64,000 nucleotides of DNA. Origin: Candidatus Doudnabacteria bacterium (GTDB lineage: Bacteria; Patescibacteriota; Doudnabacteria; UBA920). This document shows positions 1 to 63,664 of this stretch, piece by piece. Where the stretch lies: contig JARLHZ010000010.1 in NCBI GenBank assembly GCA_031291995.1, forward strand, positions 37,155 through 101,154, written 5' to 3'. Numbering within the stretch: position 1 is the first letter of the stretch; each line of letters starts with the position of its first letter. The position numbers and the translations under genes are program-made. Below the pieces are notes generated by a model, which was not told the DNA's origin, ran no database searches, and saw nothing but the letters and a program-made list of their open reading frames with translations.

Positions 1-873
1 TTAGGCTATCGCTTAGAGCGCTGGTGCGCGGCAACATTACAGCGTCCCGATCCGCAAATTATTTGGCAATGTTCCCTGCCCGTGGAAGAATGGAACAAAG
101 CTTGGGCGATTTTTGAATCGCCGAGCGGCAGTGAAAAGGGGCGATGGGAAATTAAACAGGCGCTACCGCATCCCTGGATAGTCAAATTTGGCGAGGTTCA
201 ATTTCAACTCAAACTCTCCCCGTTCAAACACACCGGCTTGTTTGCCGAACAGGCGGCAAACTGGGAATGGATGCTGGCAAAAATTTCAAATGGCAAATTT
301 CAAATTCCAAGCGACGGGTCTTCGGCATCAAATAGTTCCTCCGCAGATGGAAACAATAGAGTGCTAAAAATATTAAACTTATTCGCTTACACCGGCGGCA
401 CGACAATGGTCCTGGCCAAAGCCGGGTGCCAGGTTACCCACGTTGACGCTTCCAAGCCGGCGATTACCTGGGCAAACGAAAACCACAAGCTTAACAATTT
501 GCCAGCCGATTCGGTCCGCTGGATTTTGGATGATGCCGTTAAATTCGTTAAACGCGAATTAAAGCGAGGCGCCAAATACGACGGAATAATTATGGATCCG
601 CCGGCCTTTGGCCATTCGCCCACGGGCAAAACCTGGAAGTTTAACGACGACTTGCCGGGACTGCTCTCCGACTGCGTGGAATTATTGTCGGATGATGCAA
701 AATTTTTAGTTGTAAACGGCTACGCGACAAACTCTTCGGCTTTGGCATTAAATAACCTGCTGGAAGATTCTATATCATCCAAACACGGAAAAATTGAGTT
801 TGGCGAACTTTGTTTAAAACAAAAATCCGGCAGACTCCTGTCCACCGGAATATTCTCTCGTTGGTCAAAATAA
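1..873 (+). CDS. Class I SAM-dependent rRNA methyltransferase, RlmI/RlmK-like C-terminal catalytic part; 5' end truncated by the window edge (frame open back to position 1; the track ORF starts at GTG 82)
   Basis: Motifs LFAYTGG (SAM-binding motif I) and DPPAFG (motif IV DPPxF) typical of the RlmI/YccW m5C methyltransferases; no stop codon upstream in frame. Confidence 0.6.
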   Translation, partial: LGYRLERWCAATLQRPDPQIIWQCSLPVEEWNKAWAIFESPSGSEKGRWEIKQALPHPWIVKFGEVQFQLKLSPFKHTGLFAEQAANWEWMLAKISNGKFQIPSDGSSASNSSSADGNNRVLKILNLFAYTGGTTMVLAKAGCQVTHVDASKPAITWANENHKLNNLPADSVRWILDDAVKFVKRELKRGAKYDGIIMDPPAFGHSPTGKTWKFNDDLPGLLSDCVELLSDDAKFLVVNGYATNSSALALNNLLEDSISSKHGKIEFGELCLKQKSGRLLSTGIFSRWSK

Positions 874-4210: not shown

Positions 4211-4792
4211 ATGAAAATGCGTTACGCATTGATCTACGTGGCGGTCGTAATCATCGGTTGGTTCGTGCCGATTGCGATTACCGGCCAATCAGCACTTAAC
4301 AGCACCGCCGTGACGGCGGTGACAATCACAGCGTTACTGGCTTCGCTCTTGGTAAAGTTCGCGGCATTCGACCGCGCGGAGCGCTGGAACCAATGGGTTG
4401 TGCTGTATGTGCCCATTATGCTCCTGGCTTTCCTGATGGGCGTAGCCATAAAAGACAAAGACACCCTGAGCTGCATCCAGCTTGGAATCGGCTCGCTCAT
4501 CCACGTGGCTTTCTGGCTGTCGTCCTGCGAGTCCGACAGCCTGCGCCTGAGCGAATTCCGGGCGAGCAACGGCGCCGGCATGCCGCACACCAACGATTTG
4601 CTGTTCTCGCTGTTCCTGAACGAACATCGCGGCGCGGCGTCAAACATCGTCAAAAGCCTCGGCAAAGGCTTTCCGGTGAAACTAAAGGAAATTGCGGCAT
4701 TGCTGCCAAATCTTTCCGAGGAGTTCATCGGGGAAGTCCGAAAGGAAATCGAAATCTACCAAAGGAGGAAGCACGGCAAAATATTGCAATAA
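4211..4792 (+). CDS. Hypothetical membrane-anchored protein (2-3 N-terminal TM helices plus a soluble C-terminal domain) within the GC-rich island
   Basis: Hydrophobic N-terminus; several overlapping long ORFs in other frames indicate high GC; RBS-like ggaga upstream. Confidence 0.45.
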   Translation: MKMRYALIYVAVVIIGWFVPIAITGQSALNSTAVTAVTITALLASLLVKFAAFDRAERWNQWVVLYVPIMLLAFLMGVAIKDKDTLSCIQLGIGSLIHVAFWLSSCESDSLRLSEFRASNGAGMPHTNDLLFSLFLNEHRGAASNIVKSLGKGFPVKLKEIAALLPNLSEEFIGEVRKEIEIYQRRKHGKILQ

Positions 4793-5307: not shown

Positions 5308-5535
5308 TTATAAATTATTTAAAAAATCTTCCCGGTCAATTTCCGCTTCCCTTAAAATTGCTCTGAGCAATCCTCTGCCAATGTCTTCACCACGATGATC
5401 CGGTACGACTGTCGTACGACCATCGGGATGCGCAAAAAATCGATGAGAACCTGACTGGCGAATCTCGATGAACCCGAACATTTTTAAAGCGCGAATAACA
5501 TCGCGCGCTTTAAACATGGGCAAACGGGCAGACAT
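5308..5535 (-). CDS. hicA: HicA-family mRNA interferase toxin
   Basis: 75 aa; ...QSGSHRFFAHPDGRTTVVPDHRGEDIGRGLLRAILREAEI matches the YcfA/HicA fold; 4-nt gap to the upstream hicB. Confidence 0.75.
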   Translation of the reverse strand: MSARLPMFKARDVIRALKMFGFIEIRQSGSHRFFAHPDGRTTVVPDHRGEDIGRGLLRAILREAEIDREDFLNNL

Positions 5536-5538
5536 AAA

Positions 5539-5847
5539 TTACAAAGTTACCATTTCCATAGCTATAAAGCTGGGCTGATGGGACAAACCCAAAATTTTAT
5601 TCCTGTATGCAGAATTTTTTTTTGCAACCTCCAAACATAATTTTATGGCCTCTTTGATTCGCTTACGCAACTCGGTCAATGTTTTAGCCTGTGTATGACA
5701 ACCTGGCAATGTTGGTACCGAAGCTATAAAAAATCCATCCTCATCCTGTTCAATAATTACCGCGTAATTATTTTCCAAACGCGTTGAATAACCGACCATT
5801 TTTTCTCTAACCTTATTGGCGGGATAAATTTTAGATCTTTTCTTCAT
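5539..5847 (-). CDS. hicB: HicB-family antitoxin (may start at the internal Met at 5799)
   Basis: YAVIIEQDEDGFFIASVPTLPGCHTQAKTLTELRKRIKEAI is the HicB/UPF0150 RNase-H-like fold. Confidence 0.7.
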   Translation of the reverse strand: MKKRSKIYPANKVREKMVGYSTRLENNYAVIIEQDEDGFFIASVPTLPGCHTQAKTLTELRKRIKEAIKLCLEVAKKNSAYRNKILGLSHQPSFIAMEMVTL

Positions 5848-26625: not shown

Positions 26626-26725
26626 CGCGATAATGGCGCAAGAATCACGAATCAGGAATTAAGAATGCTTAATTCGTGGTTCTTGGTTCTTGGGAATTAA
26701 ATTATAATACTTTAAAAAAGTCTCT

Positions 26726-26859
26726 GTGCCCCTCGACTACACCACGCTGCGCGTGATTGCGCTCGGGACACTCGACTCGCTCTGCACTTCTTCGTTGGTT
26801 GAGGCCTCCCAAAGGCCGAAACCACGAGCGAGCTTCGGCGTTAGCCGAAGCGAGTCGAG
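26726..26859. repeat. Structured repeat element V, immediately 3' of tRNA-Val (second copy 59769-59888, 3' of tRNA-Ala)
   Basis: About 130 bp alignable with 59769-59888; two internal hairpins differ by compensatory substitutions (cttcggcg-ttag-ccgaag vs ctttgacg-aaag-tcaaag; ggcctcccaaaggcc vs gccctttagggc). Confidence 0.7.
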
Positions 26860-26934
26860 TGGTGGGCGGCGAAGGAATCGGACCTTCGACCCTTTCTACG
26901 TCAAAGAAATGCTCTACCACTGAGCTAGCCGCCC
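26860..26934 (-). tRNA. tRNA-Val (anticodon GAC)
   Basis: Manual cloverleaf: acceptor gggcggc/gccgccc, D-arm gctc-agtggtag-gagc, anticodon loop ttGACgt, encoded CCA. Confidence 0.8.
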
Positions 26935-29623: not shown

Positions 29624-29968
29624 ACTAGCTCCTGTTTAAAAGAATTAAGGTTATTAGATTATACAAATTATTTCGAATTTAATCAATGGCTTAATGGATG
29701 CCCCGCTTTGCTTCCATAAACCGCGCGGCCGATTAAATATCGAGCGTGGAATATTCGCGTTTGCGTTGCGGAGAATGTAAACATAATAGAACTTTCGGGC
29801 ATAAAATTAACTATACCCTAATTGAGCTCTTATTTTTAATTTTGAAAATTAAATTTTGCCCTGTACCAACTCGCTACGACCTAAAAGTCGGCTCGGGTGC
29901 AGGGAATGTACCAGTCGGCTAACTGGGTTCATGGCTGCGCCATGTACCGGAGCAAAGCGACTGGTACA

Positions 29969-30055
29969 TGGTGGGGACGGTGGGAGTTGAACCCACAAGC
30001 CCTTGCGGGCACAAGGTCCTAAGCCTTGCGCGTATGCCAATTCCGCCACGTCCCC
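29969..30055 (-). tRNA. tRNA-Leu (anticodon TAG), type II with a long variable arm
   Basis: Manual fold: acceptor ggggacg/cgtcccc, anticodon stem caagg/ccttg with loop ctTAGga, variable-arm hairpin gccc-gcaa-gggc, T-arm gtggg-ttcaact-cccac, CCA encoded. Confidence 0.8.
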
Positions 30056-30164
30056 AATGAACGATAATAACTCATTAAATCGCTTTAATTGGCAAATCTA
30101 TTTTAGCAGTTTAAGGCTTATGTTGGCAAAACAAAATGCCTCCACCCTAATTGGACAACGGCAA

Positions 30165-30365
30165 AATAAAGGTTCCCCGCCGCAAGCAGCGGGGTATTAC
30201 TGCAAGGAACAGCTGCATCTTCGCGGCAAGCCGCGAGGTATTGAACCTTTCTTTCCGCCAAAGGCGGATCCGCCTCCGGCGGAAGCTCCCTGCCTGGCGG
30301 CAGGCAGGCCTCGGCTCGCTTGTCCTTTGAAAGACAAAGGACAGACTCGCCTACGTCGCGAATAA
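30165..30365. repeat. Structured repeat element L between the pilin-like array and tRNA-Leu (second copy 59608-59760)
   Basis: Shared blocks aataaaggttccccgccgcaagc..ggggtattactgcaa and cctcggctcgct ... ctacgtcgc(g/t)aataaaa; internal hairpins differ (gtcctttgaaagacaaaggac vs cggccataaatggccg); minus-strand end forms a terminator-like GC hairpin plus U-run; carries an extra 28-bp GGATCC palindrome absent from the other copy. Confidence 0.65.
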
Positions 30366-30374
30366 AAACTACAA

Positions 30375-31268
30375 TTATTGCCCTTTGGTAATAACGCTGC
30401 TGATTACGGTAATTATAGCGTACGATAATAGCACGACAATGACGCCGATAATGGAATTAACAATGGCTTTTTTGCCTTTTTCCGACTGCTCCTCGTTGCC
30501 CGCGGAAGTAATATACCAAAAGCCGCCGACAATAAGCATTAGCACGGCAATAACTCCGGCCAGCGCCAACAGCAAAGTAATTATCTTAGTCAATAAATCT
30601 GTCAGGCTATTGCTGGCGCAAATTCCCCCGTTGCAAGCCGAACTGTTCGGCGGCAGGCATAAACCGTTAACCGAAACTAAACCAGCCGCGCAGTTACCTT
30701 GTGTCTGGCCAGTTCCGTTAGTACTTGCGCCGGTAAGCGAGATGCCCATTGCCGTTGCCGTATCAGAGCCGACGATTCCGTCATTGGTCAGGTTGTGTGA
30801 TTGCTGCCAAAGCTGAATTCCCTTGATTGTTTCTGAGTCGCAAGTTCCGCTGTAAGTGACATTGCTGTCAACACCCTGCACGATTCCCTGAATTTGCTTA
30901 ATAATATTTGGGTCGGTAGTGCCGCAAGACCCGCCGCCCTTCGGCGACCCAATAGCGTATTGAGAAGAATTGTTGTTAGCCGGCAATCCACATTTACCGC
31001 TGTTACATACCAGTCCGCTTTTGGAAGTACCGCAATCCGCGCTGGTGGAACAAGGCGTAGTATTCGTTACCGTCTCACAGGTGTTGCCGTTTGTTTTATC
31101 ACAAAATAAGCCGGTAGCGCAATCGGTATTAAAAGTGCATCCGTCCCCCAGCTGCGCGTCGGCAAAAACAAAAAAAGGGTAAGCTAAAAATACGCCAACA
31201 ATTAAGACGACTAATGCCGAAATATTTAAATACCTCAATGAAAACCCTTTTGCATGCGTCCCGTTCAT
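30375..31268 (-). CDS. T4SS-pilin-like (TrbC/VirB2-like) secreted protein with a Cys-rich N-terminal domain, member 1 of a five-gene array
   Basis: Signal peptide; C-terminal conserved block IVGGFWYITSAGNEEQSEKGKKAIVNSIIGVIVVLLSYAIITVI (two TM helices flanking an SAGNEE..EKGK loop) shared by all five paralogs; 12 Cys in the N-terminal domain. Confidence 0.6.
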   Translation of the reverse strand: MNGTHAKGFSLRYLNISALVVLIVGVFLAYPFFVFADAQLGDGCTFNTDCATGLFCDKTNGNTCETVTNTTPCSTSADCGTSKSGLVCNSGKCGLPANNNSSQYAIGSPKGGGSCGTTDPNIIKQIQGIVQGVDSNVTYSGTCDSETIKGIQLWQQSHNLTNDGIVGSDTATAMGISLTGASTNGTGQTQGNCAAGLVSVNGLCLPPNSSACNGGICASNSLTDLLTKIITLLLALAGVIAVLMLIVGGFWYITSAGNEEQSEKGKKAIVNSIIGVIVVLLSYAIITVISSVITKGQ

Positions 31269-31311
31269 TTTGTGTCTATTTTAATTTTCCGGATTCGAAC
31301 AGAAGGAAAAA

Positions 31312-31731
31312 TTAATAACCCGAAGCCACGTAATTGGAAATTACGTTGATAATTACGAATGATAAAACAATTATGACTATGCCAATAATGGCGTTAACCA
31401 CGTTTTGTTTGCCCTTTTCCGCGGCTTCTTCGTTGCCGGCGGAAGTAATATATTGGTAACCGCCGACAATGACAAACACAATGGCGATAGCCCCGGCAAT
31501 ATACAGCAGCATGGTTATTACCAAATAAATTAAACCGTTCTGGCCGGTCAGATGCGTCGCGCCGCCAATACCCATACCTCCCGTGCCAGGAAATAAACCA
31601 CCAACGCCGTTCAGGCCGCTTCCAAACGCGTCACCGCCCGTGCTTTGGGCCGATACTAATCGCGGCATCGCCAAAATGCTTCCAAAAACAACCGCCGCCT
31701 GCCAATATTTGAGTTGTAAATATTTTTTCAT
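31312..31731 (-). CDS. T4SS-pilin-like small secreted protein, member 2
   Basis: Signal peptide plus C-terminal IVGGYQYITSAGNEEAAEKGKQNVVNAIIGIVIIVLSFVIINV block. Confidence 0.6.
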   Translation of the reverse strand: MKKYLQLKYWQAAVVFGSILAMPRLVSAQSTGGDAFGSGLNGVGGLFPGTGGMGIGGATHLTGQNGLIYLVITMLLYIAGAIAIVFVIVGGYQYITSAGNEEAAEKGKQNVVNAIIGIVIIVLSFVIINVISNYVASGY

Positions 31732-31822
31732 TGTATTTTAAATTTTTTATCAAATCCGAAAACAAAAACAATTTGTTCTCGGATTTGATCCCAAACAATA
31801 CGCTTGGGACCAAAATTTCAAA

Positions 31823-32230
31823 TTACGGCGCGCTAGTCGAATTCGGACTGGCCACCAGGCTGGAAATAACGTTTATAATCACGTAGGACAAGATTATAAT
31901 CACGATACCGATAATTGCGTTAATGGCCGTACCTTTGCCTTTTTCCGCGGTTTCTTCGTTACCGGCTGAGGTAATGTACCAGAAGCCGCCAATAATCAGG
32001 AACAACACGGCAATACCGAAGGCAATGCCCAAGAGCCAGTCAATTACCGTGCGAATAAAACCGTTAATGCTGGTAGATTGACAGTTTAAACCCGTTGACG
32101 GGTCGCACTGAAAATTGGCATTTAACTGAGCGCTTGCCAACACCGGAGCGGAAATTAACATAACGGACAACATAACTTCCGCAATTTTAATCAGTTTTTC
32201 TTTTTTTATTATTTGTTTCAAGCTGTTCAC
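31823..32230 (-). CDS. T4SS-pilin-like small secreted protein, member 3
   Basis: C-terminal IIGGFWYITSAGNEETAEKGKGTAINAIIGIVIIILSYVIINV block. Confidence 0.6.
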   Translation of the reverse strand: MNSLKQIIKKEKLIKIAEVMLSVMLISAPVLASAQLNANFQCDPSTGLNCQSTSINGFIRTVIDWLLGIAFGIAVLFLIIGGFWYITSAGNEETAEKGKGTAINAIIGIVIIILSYVIINVISSLVASPNSTSAP

Positions 32231-32244
32231 CCCCTCTCTGTACC

Positions 32245-32300
32245 TTTCCCTCTCCCTCCTTGCCCGCCGAAGCCTTTTGGCAAAGGCGGGTGGGAGAGGA
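32245..32300. repeat. GC-rich nested-hairpin element (cctctccctcc ... gcccgccgaagccttttggcaaaggcgggtgggagagg) between pilin-like genes 3 and 4
   Basis: Read directly; an extended -10 (tgGTATAAT) lies just upstream on the minus strand at about 32330-32345. Confidence 0.55.
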
Positions 32301-32370
32301 CAAAGGTGAGGGATTAGGATTAATTTTTAATTTGACTTTATTATACCACAATAGTTACCTTGTTTCCATG

Positions 32371-32814
32371 CTAACTCCCATGCAACAGTAAATTTGAAAT
32401 AATTCTGACGATAACGGTGGCTAAAATTACCACCACCAAACCGATAACTGAGTTAATGATTATTTTTTTACCTTTTTCCGACTGCTCCTCGTTGCCGGCC
32501 GAAGTCACATAAAAGAATCCGCCAATTATTAAAAAGACCGCCGTGACCACGCCAACCAGGCCCATTGCCCAATAAAATACCGCCAAAACCAGGCCGCTAG
32601 CCGAGCAAAAATAAGGCAGGCTGCTGCTGGCTACCACATTGGCGCCGGAACTCAATCCGAATTGGCTCATAAAATTGGCACATCGCTGGTCAGAAGAAAT
32701 TACCGGCGCCTGATTTTGCGCCCCGGCCACAGCCGGCACCAACGCCAAAAATGACAAGTTGAATAGAACCAGCAGTGAGGCGATTTTCGCGAACTTGATA
32801 AATTTAATTCCCAT
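32371..32814 (-). CDS. T4SS-pilin-like small secreted protein, member 4
   Basis: C-terminal IIGGFFYVTSAGNEEQSEKGKKIIINSVIGLVVVILATVIVRI block. Confidence 0.6.
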   Translation of the reverse strand: MGIKFIKFAKIASLLVLFNLSFLALVPAVAGAQNQAPVISSDQRCANFMSQFGLSSGANVVASSSLPYFCSASGLVLAVFYWAMGLVGVVTAVFLIIGGFFYVTSAGNEEQSEKGKKIIINSVIGLVVVILATVIVRIISNLLLHGS

Positions 32815-32831
32815 ATTTTTGTTGTTAGATT

Positions 32832-33326
32832 TTATTGATGCAGTAACTGCTCGGGCAAATTGCTACAGGGATTTTGGTCAATGATCAGGTAATTCATGGG
32901 GTTAGTGAGATCAAGCCTGCAATTGGCGTTGTTCTTTAATGAAATATCGCGGGTCAGCAGGACATTAACCACCGTATTAATAAGCATAAAGGCGATTAGC
33001 ACCAAAATAAACCCGACGACCGCTTCCGAGATTCCGCTTTTATGTTTGGTAATCGCTTCTTCATTACCCATGGAAATGACCAGCCAAAATCCGTGGTCAA
33101 CAATTTTGTATGCCGCGTAAACTCCGGCCATGGCAATCAACCAGTTGGTGACCTTGGCAATGAGAGTAAATATATCTATAACCGTACACGGTTTTTCGGC
33201 CGCGCCACCGCACGGTACCAGCCCGGCCGCGTGCGTAACGTGCGGCATACTGACGGCAAATAAACTAACAGCCGATAAAGCCAGGATTCCAAGGAAAATT
33301 TTTTGTTTCTGTGCGGACATTTTCAA
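32832..33326 (-). CDS. T4SS-pilin-like small secreted protein, member 5 (most divergent)
   Basis: C-terminal FWLVISMGNEEAITKHKSGISEAVVGFILVLIAFMLINTVVNV block. Confidence 0.5.
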   Translation of the reverse strand: MKMSAQKQKIFLGILALSAVSLFAVSMPHVTHAAGLVPCGGAAEKPCTVIDIFTLIAKVTNWLIAMAGVYAAYKIVDHGFWLVISMGNEEAITKHKSGISEAVVGFILVLIAFMLINTVVNVLLTRDISLKNNANCRLDLTNPMNYLIIDQNPCSNLPEQLLHQ

Positions 33327-33641
33327 TACTAATCAATTACCCCGCAGCAGAGCTGCGAGGTATGAACTGCAGGTTGCAAAGGAGTTGCTATAACCCCGGA
33401 GCAGAGCTCCGAGGAAATCTTATTCATTATACCATAAGCTGACCGGAACCGCCAAACCATTACTGGTAACAGCTCTCAATCTTGAGTAGGACAAACCCGG
33501 AGGCCGGAAATACTGGCGATTTTATGCAGCGAGAATTGGGATGCGTTGTGATATCAGGCGCAGACTGATGAACGAGAAGCCCCCCAGGCCGCGGAAAATC
33601 GGAAGGATTTTCGGCCTCACTCAGGCTTGTGAATTTTGATC
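33327..33641 (-). promoter_or_regulatory. 315-bp ORF-free leader upstream of the pilin-like array with two tandem covarying hairpins
   Basis: ccccgcagcagagctgcgagg and ccccggagcagagctccgagg have an identical architecture with compensatory stem changes. Confidence 0.45.
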
Positions 33642-49284: not shown

Positions 49285-49500
49285 TTATTTTTCAAAATCC
49301 TCGGCTTTTAAATCTGCCTGCCTTAAAATGGAACTAAAAGTCCCTTTTGGTATTTGTTTCCTGCCGGCCGGGACAATCACGGTTAATATCCGGTTGCCAG
49401 TCTTACGATACTTAATATGACTGCCCTTCTGCGAGGCAAACAAAAAGCCCTGGTTTTCCAGGACTTTTAAAATCTCTTTTGATGAATATAATTTAGGCAT
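49285..49500 (-). CDS. hicA: HicA-family toxin (second copy)
   Basis: SSKEILKVLENQGFLFASQKGSHIKYRK ... VPAGRKQIPKGTFSSILRQADL. Confidence 0.75.
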   Translation of the reverse strand: MPKLYSSKEILKVLENQGFLFASQKGSHIKYRKTGNRILTVIVPAGRKQIPKGTFSSILRQADLKAEDFEK

Positions 49501-49711
49501 ATGCTACGGACATTTTGGTGAGTTCTGCCTTTTGGATTTTGCTTATTTTTGGCGTTTTTGCGTCTTCAAAATATAGTTCCAAAGCTTCCTGTAAATTTTT
49601 TATAGCTTCCCTTTTAGTCTTGCCAAAGCTGGAAACATCCACGTTCAAACACTGGGCAACATAAAATTTGTCTTCTTTCCAAACTGCCGATTGTAAATTA
49701 ATTTTAGCCAT
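49493..49711 (-). CDS. hicB: HicB-family antitoxin (short form, second copy)
   Basis: YVAQCLNVDVSSFGKTKREAIKNLQEALELYFED; 8-nt overlap with hicA. Confidence 0.7.
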   Translation of the reverse strand: MAKINLQSAVWKEDKFYVAQCLNVDVSSFGKTKREAIKNLQEALELYFEDAKTPKISKIQKAELTKMSVAYA

Positions 49712-56658: not shown

Positions 56659-56815
56659 TCTTATTTAATCTTGGTCAATTATTTATACAGGATTTCAGAT
56701 ATTTTTGACTGCCGATGAAATGCTAACTACAGTCAAAAATTCTGGAATGACAGAATTTCCTGTCCCCTCAATTTTGTCAATTTTATTTAATCTTGGTCAA
56801 TTTTGGTCAATTCTA
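56645..56815. promoter_or_regulatory. Two direct copies (56647-56680, 56770-56805) of caattttgtcaat(c/t)ttatttaatcttggtcaatt between murF and alr
   Basis: TTGTCAAT / TTGGTCAAT units, same family as 7110-7160 and 37388-37450. Confidence 0.5.
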
Positions 56816-58396
56816 AATGTACTGGTCTCCCCAGTCGTTCTGAAACATTACCACGTCGCCGGGTTTTAAAATATTTTTCAAGCCCGCGTGGGCTTCTAGT
56901 GCGCTGTCAAACCAAATAATTTGCGGTTTTTTGACTCCAACCACCTCCCCCGCTGACGCGGGTACTCCTCCTTGAAAAGGAGGAGAGCTCGACGTTTTTT
57001 CGGACAACCGCGGAGCCTCCCCTCCTGGCAAGGAGGGGTGTCCCGCAAAGCGGGACGGGGAGGTCTGAATTCCTTCTTCAACAAACCCCGTCACGCTATT
57101 TCTTATAAAAATTGCAACGTCCGCCACGCCGGCAAGCTCCCGGCCAATTTGCCGATGAACTTCGGCGGAAGAGTTCCCCATTTCCACCAAACCGGGCGTA
57201 ATATATATTTTCCGCCGGTTTGTGAATCGCGACAAAACCTTTATTGCCTCCCCCACCCCGTCCGGATTGCCGTTGTACGCGTCATCTATAACTAATACCT
57301 CGCCCGCCGATTTAATCGGCTGCAGCCGGTGCTCCACGGGCTTTATATTTGTAATACCCCGTTTCAGCTCATCATCCGACATCCCCAAATTTTTGCCGAT
57401 CTTGACCGCCGCGTCCACATCACCCAGCGCGTACTCTCCCAATAAGTTTACTTCAATTTTACCAAACGATTCCAATTCCGCTTCCCAGCAAAGTTTTTCG
57501 GTATTAAATTTTTGATATTTGATATTTGATATTTGTCCGCCAAAGGCGGATCCGCCTTTGGCGGAATATTTTTCCACCTTGTGGTCCGGCCAAATAAATT
57601 TTTTATAATTATCCATTACTCTTTTATCATCGGCGTTTAACAGCACCACAGCTCCGGGCTCGGAGCCGCTGACAATTTCAAAAATCGTGGACGCCACCGT
57701 TTCCATATTTTTCATTCGTTCCAAATGCGATTCGTTTATGCCGGTTACCACGGCAATATTAGGCTTTGCTATATCGCAGATCTCCCCAATGTCCCCGGCG
57801 TAATGTTCCCCCATTTCTACTATTAATACCTGAGTTTCATCAGTCACCTTATTTAAAATCCACCGCGCGATTCCCACCGGCGTATTTACACTGTCCGGAG
57901 TGGCTAATACCTTAAACCTAATACCTAATACCTTCCCCAGTACTTCCTTCATCGTAGTCTTGCCGTAACTGCCCGCTACCCCGATTATTTTTAAATCAGG
58001 CGGCATATTACCGATTTTAGATTTGGCGCGGATCGCCAATCTTTTTTTTGCCAAACTATCAAACGGTTTAAGCAGCAATAATACAACGCTAAATAACAAA
58101 AAATAAAAAGGCGACAAAATTATCGCCGCGATAACCGCGGCAACAAAAAAATTGCCGATTGAACCGGTTAAAATTACAGTTATTAAGCCGCTAAAAATTA
58201 TGACAAAACCGTGCAAAGCCACCGCCATAAGCATCATTGCCTTGGCTTTTACGCTCCACACCAATTCCTTCCGCTGTTCCCCTCTCGGCCATGGCCCCTT
58301 TTTAAATAACAACTTCCAATACCTGCCCAGCTCATAGTTTTCCAGCTGGAGCAGGTACAATTGATACCTTATAAATTTCGGAACAATAAAATCCAT
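56813..58396 (-). CDS. murF: Mur ligase family UDP-MurNAc-pentapeptide synthetase (MurF-like) with an N-terminal membrane extension and two in-frame repeat-element insertions
   Basis: Mur ligase P-loop GSYGKTT and middle/C-terminal domains; upstream of alr-ddl; about 100-aa N-terminal segment with 2-3 TM helices; inserts at 56944-57070 and 57505-57564. Confidence 0.75.
   Translation of the reverse strand: MDFIVPKFIRYQLYLLQLENYELGRYWKLLFKKGPWPRGEQRKELVWSVKAKAMMLMAVALHGFVIIFSGLITVILTGSIGNFFVAAVIAAIILSPFYFLLFSVVLLLLKPFDSLAKKRLAIRAKSKIGNMPPDLKIIGVAGSYGKTTMKEVLGKVLGIRFKVLATPDSVNTPVGIARWILNKVTDETQVLIVEMGEHYAGDIGEICDIAKPNIAVVTGINESHLERMKNMETVASTIFEIVSGSEPGAVVLLNADDKRVMDNYKKFIWPDHKVEKYSAKGGSAFGGQISNIKYQKFNTEKLCWEAELESFGKIEVNLLGEYALGDVDAAVKIGKNLGMSDDELKRGITNIKPVEHRLQPIKSAGEVLVIDDAYNGNPDGVGEAIKVLSRFTNRRKIYITPGLVEMGNSSAEVHRQIGRELAGVADVAIFIRNSVTGFVEEGIQTSPSRFAGHPSLPGGEAPRLSEKTSSSPPFQGGVPASAGEVVGVKKPQIIWFDSALEAHAGLKNILKPGDVVMFQNDWGDQYI
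56944..57070. repeat. Composite hairpin element (ctcctccttgaaaaggaggag; cctcccctcctggcaaggaggggtg; gtcccgcaaagcgggac) in-frame in murF
   Basis: Encodes about 39 extra aa (SPSRFAGHPSLPGGEAPRLSEKTSSSPPFQGGVPASAGE). Confidence 0.7.
57505..57564. repeat. (tgatatt)x3-4 microsatellite plus the 28-bp palindrome ccgccaaaggcggatccgcctttggcgg, in-frame in murF
   Basis: The same palindrome (one variant) sits inside repeat L at 30255-30282. Confidence 0.7.
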
Positions 58397-58453: not shown

Positions 58454-59209
58454 TTAGGTTATAAATTCTCCCACCGCTTTTGCGAATTCTTCCGGCTCAT
58501 CCGAAAAGCTGAAATGGCCGGCATGTTTGAGAATTAGGAATTTGGAGTTTGGAATTAGGAATTTCATAAGTTCCCCGAATTTTGGAGGCGTGTCTTTGTC
58601 ATTTTTCCCGTTTATAATTAGCGTCGGCACGGTAATTTTTTTCATGTCTTCCGATAAATCTTCGCTTGTAATATTGACAAAAGTTTTTTGCAGTTCCGGC
58701 GTAGCTAGGTAGTCTTCCGCCCCGATTGATTTATAAATTTTTTTTCGCAATCCGTGCATAAACTCCGGCTTAAAAAAAGGCTTTACAATTTTTGCGCCAA
58801 TCTTCATCATATTCTTTTTATCCGATGGCATGGCAAACCCGGCGCTGTCCGCTAAAATTAGCTTGCTGATTAATTCCGGATGTCCAGCCGCCAGTTTAAT
58901 TCCAATGCGGCCGCCGAACGAATGGCCGATGATTATTACATTAGTAAGTTCCAATTTTTTAATGAACCCCGCCACAACTTCGGCATAACCCCCTACTGTC
59001 ATCGCATGCATTGGGATTTGCGACCCACCAAACCCGGGCAAATCCAGGGCAAACAAATGACAATTGACAATTGACAATTTACTTAGCACATTTTGCCAAA
59101 TTTCTTTATTGGAACGCCAACCATGCAAAAAAAGCAAGGTTTTGCCGGCATCCCCCGATGTTTCCTGGTAACTAATTAAATAATTATTTACGATAACCTG
59201 CTTAGTCAT
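58454..59209 (-). CDS. Alpha/beta-fold hydrolase
   Basis: HGW ... nucleophile elbow GHSFGG. Confidence 0.75.
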   Translation of the reverse strand: MTKQVIVNNYLISYQETSGDAGKTLLFLHGWRSNKEIWQNVLSKLSIVNCHLFALDLPGFGGSQIPMHAMTVGGYAEVVAGFIKKLELTNVIIIGHSFGGRIGIKLAAGHPELISKLILADSAGFAMPSDKKNMMKIGAKIVKPFFKPEFMHGLRKKIYKSIGAEDYLATPELQKTFVNITSEDLSEDMKKITVPTLIINGKNDKDTPPKFGELMKFLIPNSKFLILKHAGHFSFSDEPEEFAKAVGEFIT

Positions 59210-59270
59210 GTTTAAATAATAGCATTACCTAGCACAAGATAAAACCCCAGCATTATGCTGGGGTTTTATC

Positions 59271-59344
59271 TGGTCGGGCTGCTGGGAATTGAACCCAGTC
59301 TACACGCACCCGAAGCGTGCGTACGACCGGCATACTCCAGCCCG
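59271..59344 (-). tRNA. tRNA-Pro (anticodon CGG)
   Basis: Acceptor cgggctg/cagcccg, anticodon stem cacgc/gcgtg with loop ttCGGgt, T-arm ctggg-ttcaatt-cccag, CCA encoded. Confidence 0.7.
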
Positions 59345-59607
59345 ATTGTTATTGTGGAAGGATAAAAATAACCCTGATTAGGGCTTTAATCCTTGATTAG
59401 ATTTTCTTTTTTGATTCTTGACCATTTTTTGACTTGGATTTCTCTTTGCCTTGCTTGTATTAAACTAAGGAAAGTTTCTGCGTAGACAATTTCCCCGCCA
59501 CCGTGTTGTTTTGTCCATTGAGCGCCTTTGCCTGAGTTATGCCGAAATTCTCATTGAGGCGGAAAATTTGTGCATCCAGTGTACTAAGTTCCGTCGTTAC
59601 AACTAAA

Positions 59608-59760
59608 AAAATAAAGGTTCCCCGCCGCAAGCAATGGGGTATTACTGCAAAGACATCGCTACAATTGCGCGGCGAGCCGCGCGGTATTGAACCTGTATTA
59701 GCTCCTCGGCTCGCTCGGCCATAAATGGCCGGACTCGCTCTACGTCGCTAATAAAACACA
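59608..59760. repeat. Structured repeat element P (copy of L at 30165-30365, lacking the GGATCC palindrome insert)
   Basis: See L; contiguous with element A. Confidence 0.65.
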
Positions 59761-59768
59761 CAGTTGTT

Positions 59769-59888
59769 TGCCCCTCGACTCGGTTGCGCTCGCTCGGGAC
59801 ACTCGATTCGCTACAAAGCTGGTGGTCGGTCGAAGCCCTTTAGGGCGTAGACCACGAGCGAGCTTTGACGAAAGTCAAAGCGAGTCGA
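59769..59888. repeat. Structured repeat element A (copy of V), immediately 3' of tRNA-Ala(GGC)
   Basis: See V. Confidence 0.7.
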
Positions 59889-59962
59889 GTGGTGGACCTG
59901 GAGGGAATCGAACCCTCGACTAATCCATGCCATGGATCCGTATTACCATTATACTACAGGCC
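59889..59962 (-). tRNA. tRNA-Ala (anticodon GGC)
   Basis: Acceptor gggcctg with G3:U70, D-arm gtat-aatggta-atac, anticodon loop atGGCat, CCA encoded. Confidence 0.8.
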
Positions 59963-60053
59963 CCTGCTCCGCCAAGGCTTCGCAGGGCAAGCCCCGCGTA
60001 ACCTCGACATTTGGTTTGACACTAAGATATATTACTCGATTTCTCTAAAATTA

Positions 60054-60425
60054 TCAATAGCCCTTTGGCAGATTTACCTGGATTTGCTGGCCGTTGGGCA
60101 AAGTGACAATTGTCGGCGTGCCGCTCCCCTGCTGGGCATTCTGATTATCGGATGGTGTTTGGCCTGTGGGAATTAATTTTTTCGCAGAGTTTACTAAATC
60201 TGTAAAATTTCCGACTTGATCCTCAAAAGGTTTTAACAAACCGGTTTTCTGTAATATCCAACCAAGAATAACAACAATTATTGCCAACCCGGCCACATAC
60301 CCCAAAGCGCTAAACATGCCGTTAAAAAAAGATCTCCAAATCCCGGCACTGCCGGTTTTCTTTTTAATTTCCGCTAAATTTTCATTCAGCTTCTCCAGCT
60401 CTGTTTTCAAATCCGGGTCAATCAT
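60054..60425 (-). CDS. Hypothetical membrane-anchored protein
   Basis: Single TM helix; C-terminal Q/G/T-rich region; start at the internal Met. Confidence 0.35.
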   Translation of the reverse strand: MIDPDLKTELEKLNENLAEIKKKTGSAGIWRSFFNGMFSALGYVAGLAIIVVILGWILQKTGLLKPFEDQVGNFTDLVNSAKKLIPTGQTPSDNQNAQQGSGTPTIVTLPNGQQIQVNLPKGY

Positions 60426-63304: not shown

Positions 63305-63378
63305 TGGTGGACCTGGGGGGAATCGAACCCCCGCCTCGGCAATGCGAATGCCGCGTAATACCACTTTACTACAGGCCC
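63305..63378 (-). tRNA. tRNA-Ala (anticodon CGC)
   Basis: Acceptor gggcctg with G3:U70, D-arm gtaa-agtggtat-tac, anticodon stem cggca/tgccg with loop ttCGCat, CCA encoded. Confidence 0.8.
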
Positions 63379-63424: not shown

Positions 63425-63664
63425 ATGTTTTATTTCTACATTTTAAAATGCAAAGACGGCACACTGTACTCGGGCAGCACGAATGATCTTAAAAAACGCG
63501 AGGCGGTGCACAACTCCGGCAAAGGGTCTAAATATGTTATTGCCCATGGCGGCGGAAAAATTGTTTATCATGAAAAATTCAGAAAGTGGGGGAAGGCGCT
63601 AAGTCGGGAGGCTCAAGTAAAAAAATTATCTCGCAGAAAAAAGCTGGAGCTCATTAAAAAATGA
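63425..63664 (+). CDS. GIY-YIG nuclease-superfamily small protein (UPF0213-like)
   Basis: FYFYILKCKDGTLYSGSTNDLKKREAVHNSGKGSKY ... matches the GIY-YIG core. Confidence 0.75.
   Translation: MFYFYILKCKDGTLYSGSTNDLKKREAVHNSGKGSKYVIAHGGGKIVYHEKFRKWGKALSREAQVKKLSRRKKLELIKK

Follow-up and report, generated by a model that had tools for sequence, protein, structure and literature searches.

Two stretches of a Doudnabacteria contig share conserved blocks, fold into hairpins and lie near tRNA genes, and the question they raise is whether such sequences belong to the tRNA loci, encode an RNA, or are copies of an element that spreads through the genome. We analysed them within a 64,000-nucleotide segment of the contig (the window) and refer to them as L and P. 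The initial annotation had described a structured repeat family that links the 3' end of a pilin-like gene array to tRNA loci. Comparison with relatives in other genomes indicates that L and P, together with a third fragment, are probably copies of an interspersed non-coding repeat, roughly 150 nt long, that moves, or moved until recently, in the genomes of CPR/Patescibacteria of the Doudnabacteria type.

Copies in the window

The two homologous copies reported by the initial annotation were both recovered, with exact limits of 30165-30366 for L (202 nt) and 59610-59755 for P (146 nt); both are full elements, read on the plus strand. Pairwise alignment with blastn joined their 5' parts over 87 nt (E 1e-23) and their 3' parts over 33 nt (E 1e-3), and revealed conserved blocks broken by a hairpin with a wholly different stem in each copy. 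That this hairpin occupies the same position with unrelated stems, TGTCCTTTG/CAAAGGACA in L and CGGCCA/TGGCCG in P, had been correctly noted. A family profile searched against the window with nhmmer returned P at E 7.5e-40 and L in two parts, at E 1.6e-24 (5') and 4.7e-7 (3'). The covariance model (CM) scored P at 153.8 bits over model positions 1-153 and L at 85.2 and 28.9 bits.

Read in the plus sense, P runs AATAAAGGTTCC ... CGCTAATAAA. An AATAAA hexamer forms each boundary: the 5' hexamer (59610-59615) was placed with a profile over 45 insertion sites, and beyond the 3' hexamer (59750-59755) the flanks are unrelated between copies. Helix P1 (59615-59694), in which AGGTT at 59615-59619 pairs with AACCT at 59690-59694, encloses hairpin 1 (CCCCGC...ATGGGG, 59620-59639), whose tip varies in sequence and length among copies, and hairpin 2 (GCGCGG CGAG CCGCGC, 59667-59682), which is followed by the conserved GGTATTGAACC. 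Hairpin 3 (CGGCCA TAAA TGGCCG, 59715-59732) has a variable stem, and at least ten other stems occupy the same place elsewhere. The corresponding hairpins of L are CCCCGC CGCAAGCA GCGGGG (30175-30194), TCGCGG CAAG CCGCGA (30221-30236) and TGTCCTTTG AAAGA CAAAGGACA (30321-30343). L is 56 nt longer than P because it carries two nested palindromes, a 30-nt double palindrome (TCCGCCAAAGGCGGATCCGCCTCCGGCGGA, 30254-30283) and a 19-nt palindrome (CTGCCTGGCGGCAGGCAGG, 30290-30308); both are missing from a nearly identical copy at another locus, L014.

A partial, diverged copy that the initial annotation overlooked lies at 33340-33416 on the plus strand (nhmmer E 2e-6, model positions 9-76; CM 17 bits, E 0.05). 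It consists of hairpin 1, the linker and hairpin 2, and lacks the end motifs and the 3' domain. No additional copy emerged when the entire window was scanned with the CM and the filters were switched off. The pilin-like array itself comprises five tandem paralogous small genes on the minus strand (30375-33326) with a T4SS-pilin domain (PF18895), and is bracketed by L/P sequence in the same orientation, with the partial copy upstream and the full copy L downstream.

The genes around the copies, seven tRNAs among them, are all or nearly all on the minus strand. GC skew is negative throughout the window, and the minus strand is therefore the G-rich strand. The order tRNA-Ala, element A (a separate repeat, discussed below), P, about 260 nt and tRNA-Pro on the minus strand is as originally described. 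On the strand of the neighbouring genes, L lies 107 nt and P 260 nt upstream of a tRNA.

Distribution across genomes

An exact-pattern scan of species-representative genomes returned 14 true copies, in CPR MAGs, and a metagenome scan with a differently anchored pattern returned 46 loci, 42 of them true. Removal of same-locus duplicates left 43 distinct full sequences at about 45 distinct insertion sites. Copy length ranges from 114 to 263 nt and is mostly 145-165 nt. Profile search of the fetched loci, which carry numbers such as L014, added a second copy in L023, L039, L061 and L071, and found three in L055. The carrier MAGs are labelled Doudnabacteria, Saccharibacteria (one MAG, with 6 copies on 5 contigs) or simply 'bacterium', unclassified, and one contig is labelled 'Legionella'. 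Several element loci, including one from a Doudnabacteria MAG, are syntenic with the window at 67-82% nucleotide identity, and the window thus belongs to this organism group. The 'Legionella' contig (L014, NZ_JARLJR010000064.1, labelled Legionella sp. MAG) carries the copy nearly identical to L; part of it aligns at 72% to the CPR MAG contig L012, and the contig probably stems from a CPR organism and was mis-binned into the Legionella MAG.

Nothing already described matched the element, whether a known RNA family or a known MITE, in agreement with the initial annotation, which had not matched it to the consensus of tmRNA, RNase P or SRP RNA. Scanned with Rfam at gathering thresholds, the whole window yielded tRNAs alone. 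At E values up to 10, the two loci (59200-60100 and 29900-30500) gave overlaps of at most about 20 bits, against thresholds of 37-82, and the element did not reach the gathering threshold of tmRNA, RNase P, SRP, 6S, ribozymes or omega/HEARO-type RNAs. Phage and plasmid records searched with blastn contained no match to it, and its pattern did not occur in viral contigs; a phage or plasmid origin was rejected for want of matches in these collections. A literature search returned no account of such interspersed repeats in CPR bacteria. As far as these searches reach, L/P is a family of structured repeats of mobile type not described before in CPR bacteria, which have very small genomes and, to our knowledge, are considered poor in mobile DNA.

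Boundaries and paired helices

The ends of the element are sharp. At about 45 sites it reads AATAAA-GGTTCC ... CGC(G/T)-AATAAA between unrelated flanks, and every copy starts A/ATAAAGGTTCC and ends CGC(G/T)AATAAA/, where the slash marks the boundary. In the boundary profile of the 45 insertion sites, position -1 is A in 44 and there is no conservation further out. No terminal inverted repeats were found: apart from the A/T hexamer, the 5' end AATAAAGGTTCCYCG bears no relation to TTTATTCGCGACGTAG, which is the 3' end in reverse complement. Within these limits the 5' domain consists of helix P1 (AGGTT/AACCT), which closes two similar hairpins, each followed by GGTATT. The linker CTKTMTTAGCTCCTCGGCTCGC, hairpin 3 and the tail CTCGCYCTACGTCGCKAATAAA come next, and in this 3' domain the stem of hairpin 3 can be of any sequence.

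The covariation claimed for the repeat family holds across its members. In a CM alignment of 52 distinct copies, 96.9% of the cells at the 16 pairs of P1 and hairpins 1 and 2 are paired, against 31-55% (maximum 54.5%) in a control in which the 3' partners were slid by 1-3 columns. Changes on both sides occur in 53 cells at four pairs; a MAFFT alignment was also examined. Pair 13/61 of hairpin 1 is C-G in 25 copies and U-A in 23, and three pairs of hairpin 2 are changed on both sides (C-G/G-C, G-C/A-U and U-A/G-C). The changes are confined to a small number of positions and for the most part distinguish one subfamily from another, so the independent compensatory events are few. P1 is paired in 98% of its cells over the 52 copies and, being almost invariant, shows no covariation and says nothing either way. 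For hairpin 3, the copies show ten or more unrelated stems of 7-13 bp, always at the same position and always able to fold.

While the stems covary, the single-stranded junctions GGTATTACTGCA, GGTATTGAACC and CTACGTCGC are constant. The last of these, conserved in nearly all copies, contains CTAC (the complement of GTAG) and CGTC. CGAGG after hairpin 2 can also pair with CCTCG before hairpin 3, with a change from A-U to G-C in 2 copies and from G-C to A-U in 3. This helix shares bases with hairpin 2, and several recombinant copies disrupt it; it is possibly an alternative state. Two other ideas about the sequence were abandoned. A likeness of GGTTCAATACC in the minus sense to a T-loop was dropped, as the largest subfamily has GGTTTAATACC, and the coding of a short peptide was rejected, as the ATG-initiated frame seen by eye in P is made by a private CAATGGGG change and other copies are without it.

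Strand and the terminator-like end

The minus strand had been taken to be the functional, transcribed strand, an assignment on which the evidence is mixed. The window minus sense is the more stable fold in 40 of 43 copies. Shuffling traced about 3 of the 5 kcal/mol to composition (G+U content) and gave similar z-scores (-4.0 versus -3.4), so the choice of a functional strand by folding energy was set aside. In the plus-sense reading, the helices contain 19 G.T cells versus 9 A.C cells, several of the latter in extended-hairpin copies and probably misaligned, and these wobble counts lean towards the plus sense. Of the 42 loci with enough context, 29 have the plus sense on the C-rich strand (29 versus 13); where the skew is strong, the count is 17 versus 6. 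This is a moderate orientation bias to the replication strand, of about 70:30. The skew bias and the wobble bias indicate opposite strands, and for elements of the IS200/IS605 type a stronger strand bias than 29 versus 13 would be expected.

A minus-sense end made of a GC hairpin and a U-run had been described for both copies. A consensus scan flagged this end in L (30194-30175, followed by AACCTTTATT) but not in P. In both, a 4-nt gap separates the stem from the T-run, which is interrupted. This terminator-like end, flagged for L only, is not canonical. Transcript 3' ends at GGAACCTTTATT, should they occur, would mean that the element has terminator activity.

Modularity and nested palindromes

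Three 5' subtypes (CCCCG, CCTCG-CAGC and CCTCG-GAGT) and the 3' subtypes mix in different combinations among the copies. Hairpin 3 is lost in L019. The reverse strand of L036 carries, at about 4608-4790, a 5'-domain-only variant that ends in CAATAAA; it is composed of hairpin 1 with a TCCGCC palindrome at its tip, a long insert, hairpin 2 and GGTATTGAACC, and lies directly upstream of a DnaA-like ORF (MNNQQLWQAILGSLE...). Palindromes of the forms TCCGCC-NNN-GGCGGA and CCTGCCTGCCGGCAGGCAGG occur at the tip of hairpin 1, at the tip of hairpin 2 or after P1, depending on the copy, and a palindrome related to CTGCCTGGCGGCAGGCAGG sits in the hairpin 1 tip of L033 and L074. L033 and L067 have an insert that resembles the tRNA-trailer repeat, element A.

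Similar palindromes are found inside a gene. A 31-nt perfect double palindrome, TCCGCCAAAGGCGGATCCGCCTTTGGCGGA, lies at 57536-57566, in frame in the minus-strand ORF 56813-58396. It encodes ...AKGGSAFGGQ... in this MurF-like gene, in a loop that exceeds its counterpart in solved MurF by about 3 residues. This palindrome recurs in copy L (30254-30284) and in L070 (5277-5308), L027 (293-324) and L028 (3485-3516); besides L, copies from other genomes contain it, and it also occurs on its own. The same ORF contains, at 56935-57075 (minus), a stretch of about 140 nt that contributes some 45 extra residues (TSPSRFAGHPSLPGGEAPRLSEKTSSSPPFQGGVPASAGEVVG), past the region that can be aligned with solved MurF structures. 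It comprises four consecutive GC-rich hairpins and an outer closing stem (DNA fold z -5.1), and has the appearance of a repeat inserted in frame within a gene, as Rickettsia palindromic elements are.

Evidence of recent movement

The presence of the element differs between syntenic relatives. In L038 a copy follows directly on the ortholog of window 208-834 but is missing at that place from both the window and L066, and a copy that L066 carries between two genes is missing from L041. Copies at eleven loci from one metagenome are 94.8-99.3% identical, and L007 and L057 carry identical copies at two loci with unrelated right flanks. The left flanks of L007 and L057 have 12 nt in common (GCAAGAGGTCTA); the repeated unit may sometimes be longer on its 5' side, or a partial segmental duplication may be involved. 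Head-to-tail copies with one common AATAAA occur in L012 and L032. The hexamer stands at both ends of every copy and always has the same sequence, and one-sided deviations from it (L014, L043 and L056) are not mirrored at the other end.

A search for a high-identity empty site found none, the exact-protein look-ups of four flanking genes leading to contigs that end inside repeats. Because the syntenic relatives are about 70-80% identical, base-precise junctions cannot be read from them, and because there is no clean empty/filled pair, target-site duplication and insertion next to a target are indistinguishable. Logan short-read contigs of the same strain (L076-L081) carry exactly the flanking proteins of the window and end inside L, inside element A, within tRNA-Pro and 37 nt past the last pilin gene. 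The repeats act as short-read assembly breakpoints, and so matter for genome reconstruction. Together the insertion differences, the near-identical copies, the shared-hexamer tandems and the contig ends indicate that the element has recently moved. The repeats mark recent genome change among close strains.

One point against a mobile element is that no mobilising enzyme was found in the sequence searched. No Y1/HUH transposase below E 0.4 was obtained when IS200/IS608 TnpA sequences were searched with tblastn against the window and about 290 kb of related loci, and the roughly 350 kb searched contained no autonomous relative with the same ends and tnpA/tnpB. No cargo was found; solitary 5' or 3' ends proved to be truncations, contig ends or the short variant.

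Gene context

Copies are nearly always downstream of at least one gene, often by a few bases. Relative to the flanking ORFs, about 12 are in the (+,+) and about 17 in the (-,-) arrangement, 4 are convergent, and a single copy in about 45 is divergent. At several loci the boundary hexamer contains the TAA stop of the ORF. The 148 ORFs within 3 kb of copies hold 169 Pfam families, each in at most 4 ORFs, and the commonest neighbour domains are ordinary housekeeping ones (e.g. HSP70, MreB, FtsW and methyltransferases). There is no transposase among the 25 most frequent Pfam families of these ORFs, and the OrfB/Y1 family is absent from the recurrent neighbours. A linked protein, as in a riboswitch-like leader or an omega or bridge RNA accompanied by its nuclease or recombinase, was also considered and was rejected on finding no recurrent family among the 148 ORFs.

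A tRNA scan of 44 other loci found a tRNA within 500 nt of the element in only one. The proposed link to tRNA loci therefore does not extend to the family, and the tRNA adjacency seen in the window is coincidental. The suggestion of a tRNA-operon spacer or a single non-coding RNA gene fares no better, given unrelated housekeeping neighbours and copies in both orientations.

Comparison with known repeats

REPs are described as GC-rich palindromes of 20-40 bp, one end of which directly bears an unpaired tag, GTAG or CGTC; they are located mostly downstream of genes, between co-directional or convergent ORFs and sometimes within genes (PMC3733652). Single-strand, hairpin-dependent mobilisation in trans has been proposed for them, and Proteobacteria, Cyanobacteria and Planctomycetes are named among the eight phyla covered (PMC3733652). 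Like REPs and BIMEs, L/P has GC-rich hairpins, many extragenic copies downstream of genes, mosaic modules and no classical inverted ends, and it lies between co-directional or convergent genes with one divergent case in about 45. Its motif CTACGTCGC holds both CTAC and CGTC, but about 5-10 nt from the hairpin and not at its foot as in REPs. In contrast to REP/BIME, the L/P unit has a set composition: three distinct helices, joined by long single-stranded stretches of conserved sequence, make up its roughly 150 nt. No RAYT (Y1 HUH) gene, of the type associated with REPs, was found in the sequence searched, and L/P occurs in CPR bacteria, a group other than the phyla named for REPs.

In Streptococcus pneumoniae, BOX elements are modular non-coding boxes with a variable middle module; they fold strongly, lie between genes, vary in module number and have no transposase of their own. 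L/P is likewise modular, folding, dispersed and without its own transposase, but shares no sequence similarity with BOX, occurs in another phylum, and keeps its module positions while the stems are replaced. PATEs, which derive from IS200/IS605 elements, lack terminal inverted repeats, insert beside a short specific sequence, form structure on one strand with hairpins near the ends, and can be arranged head to tail; the ends of IS200/IS605 elements carry similar hairpins. L/P resembles them in its non-inverted ends, its hairpins near the ends, its position beside a short sequence and its head-to-tail copies. It differs in that the end hairpins 1 and 3 are dissimilar, the two alike hairpins, 1 and 2, both lying in the 5' half, in that no parent IS or TnpA was found, and in its strand bias of only about 70:30.

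Classical MITEs (Correia/NEMIS, ERIC and RUP) have terminal inverted repeats and short, variable target duplications. L/P matches them in size, copy number, non-coding and intergenic character, insertion polymorphism and perhaps an influence on where transcripts end. The lack of inverted ends sets it apart from classical MITEs, and one and the same hexamer borders every copy. With the Rickettsia palindromic elements the window shares palindromes nested in frame in the MurF-like ORF (57536-57566 and 56935-57075), whereas the L/P unit itself was seen only between genes. The best-supported placement of L/P is as a non-autonomous, modular repeat closest in kind to REP/BIME and BOX elements.

Alternative explanations

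The copies might instead be a multi-copy family of genes for functional small RNAs, or for an RNA that serves an unlinked protein as a scaffold; their junctions would bind a protein or ligand and their spread would be secondary, for example through an RNA intermediate. We consider this unlikely. Covarying stems beside constant single-stranded junctions also mark functional RNA, and to that extent count against a mobile element; the hairpin 3 position is kept while its sequence is not, G.T exceeds A.C on one strand (19 versus 9 cells), and the folds beat shuffled sequences (z about -3.4 to -4). However, the unrelated flanks allow no conserved promoter outside the element, and no promoter was flagged within the window copies or next to them. 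Both orientations to neighbours occur, presence varies among close relatives, and copies tolerate nested inserts, truncation and even the absence of their entire 3' domain, all of which sits poorly with an RNA gene, as does the lack of an Rfam match even at E up to 10 and of a linked protein gene. That the element is a spacer or processing element tying tRNA loci and the pilin array together, transcribed with the tRNAs from the minus strand, is highly improbable: the 107 and 260 nt that separate the window copies from a downstream tRNA, and the position of P after tRNA-Ala and element A, suggested it, but the single tRNA-near case among 44 other loci, the different neighbours there and the mixed orientation argue against it.

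The regular position behind genes, with one divergent copy in about 45, would suit an intrinsic terminator or a module protecting mRNA 3' ends that the host keeps for its role at gene ends and not for mobility. The terminator-like score of the minus-sense end of L fits this explanation, and in 29 of 42 loci the strand that carries the sense with hairpin and T-run is the G-rich, gene-rich one. REPs, too, are described as mostly downstream of coding regions (PMC3733652). Yet about 40% of copies are oriented without any T-run, the T-run is interrupted and set 4 nt off the stem, P was not flagged, and many copies have a canonical terminator hairpin downstream that is separate from the element (e.g. 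L002b, L003 and L066). The sharp AATAAA ends and the near-identical copies would also be left unexplained, and we regard selection for such a role as quite unlikely to account for the family. As a secondary effect, a terminator role is compatible with a mobile repeat.

Proposed mechanism

Returning to a mobile repeat as the probable explanation, pairing that is kept through stem turnover, conserved junctions and the absence of inverted ends lead us to infer recognition of a folded single strand. This strand, of DNA or possibly RNA, is probably read by an enzyme encoded elsewhere, acting in trans, that would paste the element next to or into the hexamer AATAAA, often one holding the TAA stop of the upstream gene. 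The route may resemble HUH transposition of the IS200/IS605 or REP/RAYT type, or site-specific recombination at a 6-bp core; AATAAA on both sides, common to the tandem copies, would fit either hexamer-adjacent insertion or such recombination. Once inserted, the element is probably a passive 3' hairpin cluster and a weak terminator in one orientation.

The conserved junctions, compensated stems, replaceable third hairpin and fixed AATAAA joints also led us to consider that the element is more than selfish DNA and serves as the folded substrate, as single-stranded DNA or RNA, of an unrecognised structure-reading mobilisation or RNA-guided system of CPR bacteria, either a hairpin-dependent transposon of a new class with a distant enzyme or a multi-copy structured RNA with a cellular role. 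To this we assign a low probability. For a mobile repeat, the sharp AATAAA joints and three helices offer a defined substrate with which to find the mobilising enzyme. We know of no REP/RAYT- or IS200-type biology described in the CPR part of the bacterial tree, and an enzyme that reads folded single strands, if real, would extend such biology to CPR bacteria.

Other repeats in the window

The window holds layered structured repeats: the L/P unit, a tRNA-trailer repeat, and small palindromes that nest in repeats and in a cell-wall enzyme gene. The tRNA-trailer repeat, element A, is unrelated to the L/P unit. It consists of the homologous 3' trailers of tRNA-Val and tRNA-Ala(ggc) (26715-26860 and 59761-59889, minus; blastn E 2e-10), which begin with CTCGACTCGCT right after the encoded CCA. 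The trailers contain a covarying hairpin (TCGGC/GCCGA versus TTGAC/GTCAA) and a long-range pairing of CACTCGACTCGCT with AGCGARTCGAGTG. Element A was absent from the other fetched loci searched, and tRNA-Ala(cgc) at 63305 has only CACTCG in common with it. Two pairs of direct repeats, 11670-11724/62029-62083 (84%) and 11320-11357/20599-20636 (82%), are rich in ATCCGTAGA / GTCTGCTGATTGCT and unrelated to L/P. Inspection by eye also revealed HicA/HicB-like small gene pairs at 5308-5847 and 49285-49711, and a GIY-YIG-like ORF of 79 residues (63425-63664) beside tRNA-Ala(cgc).
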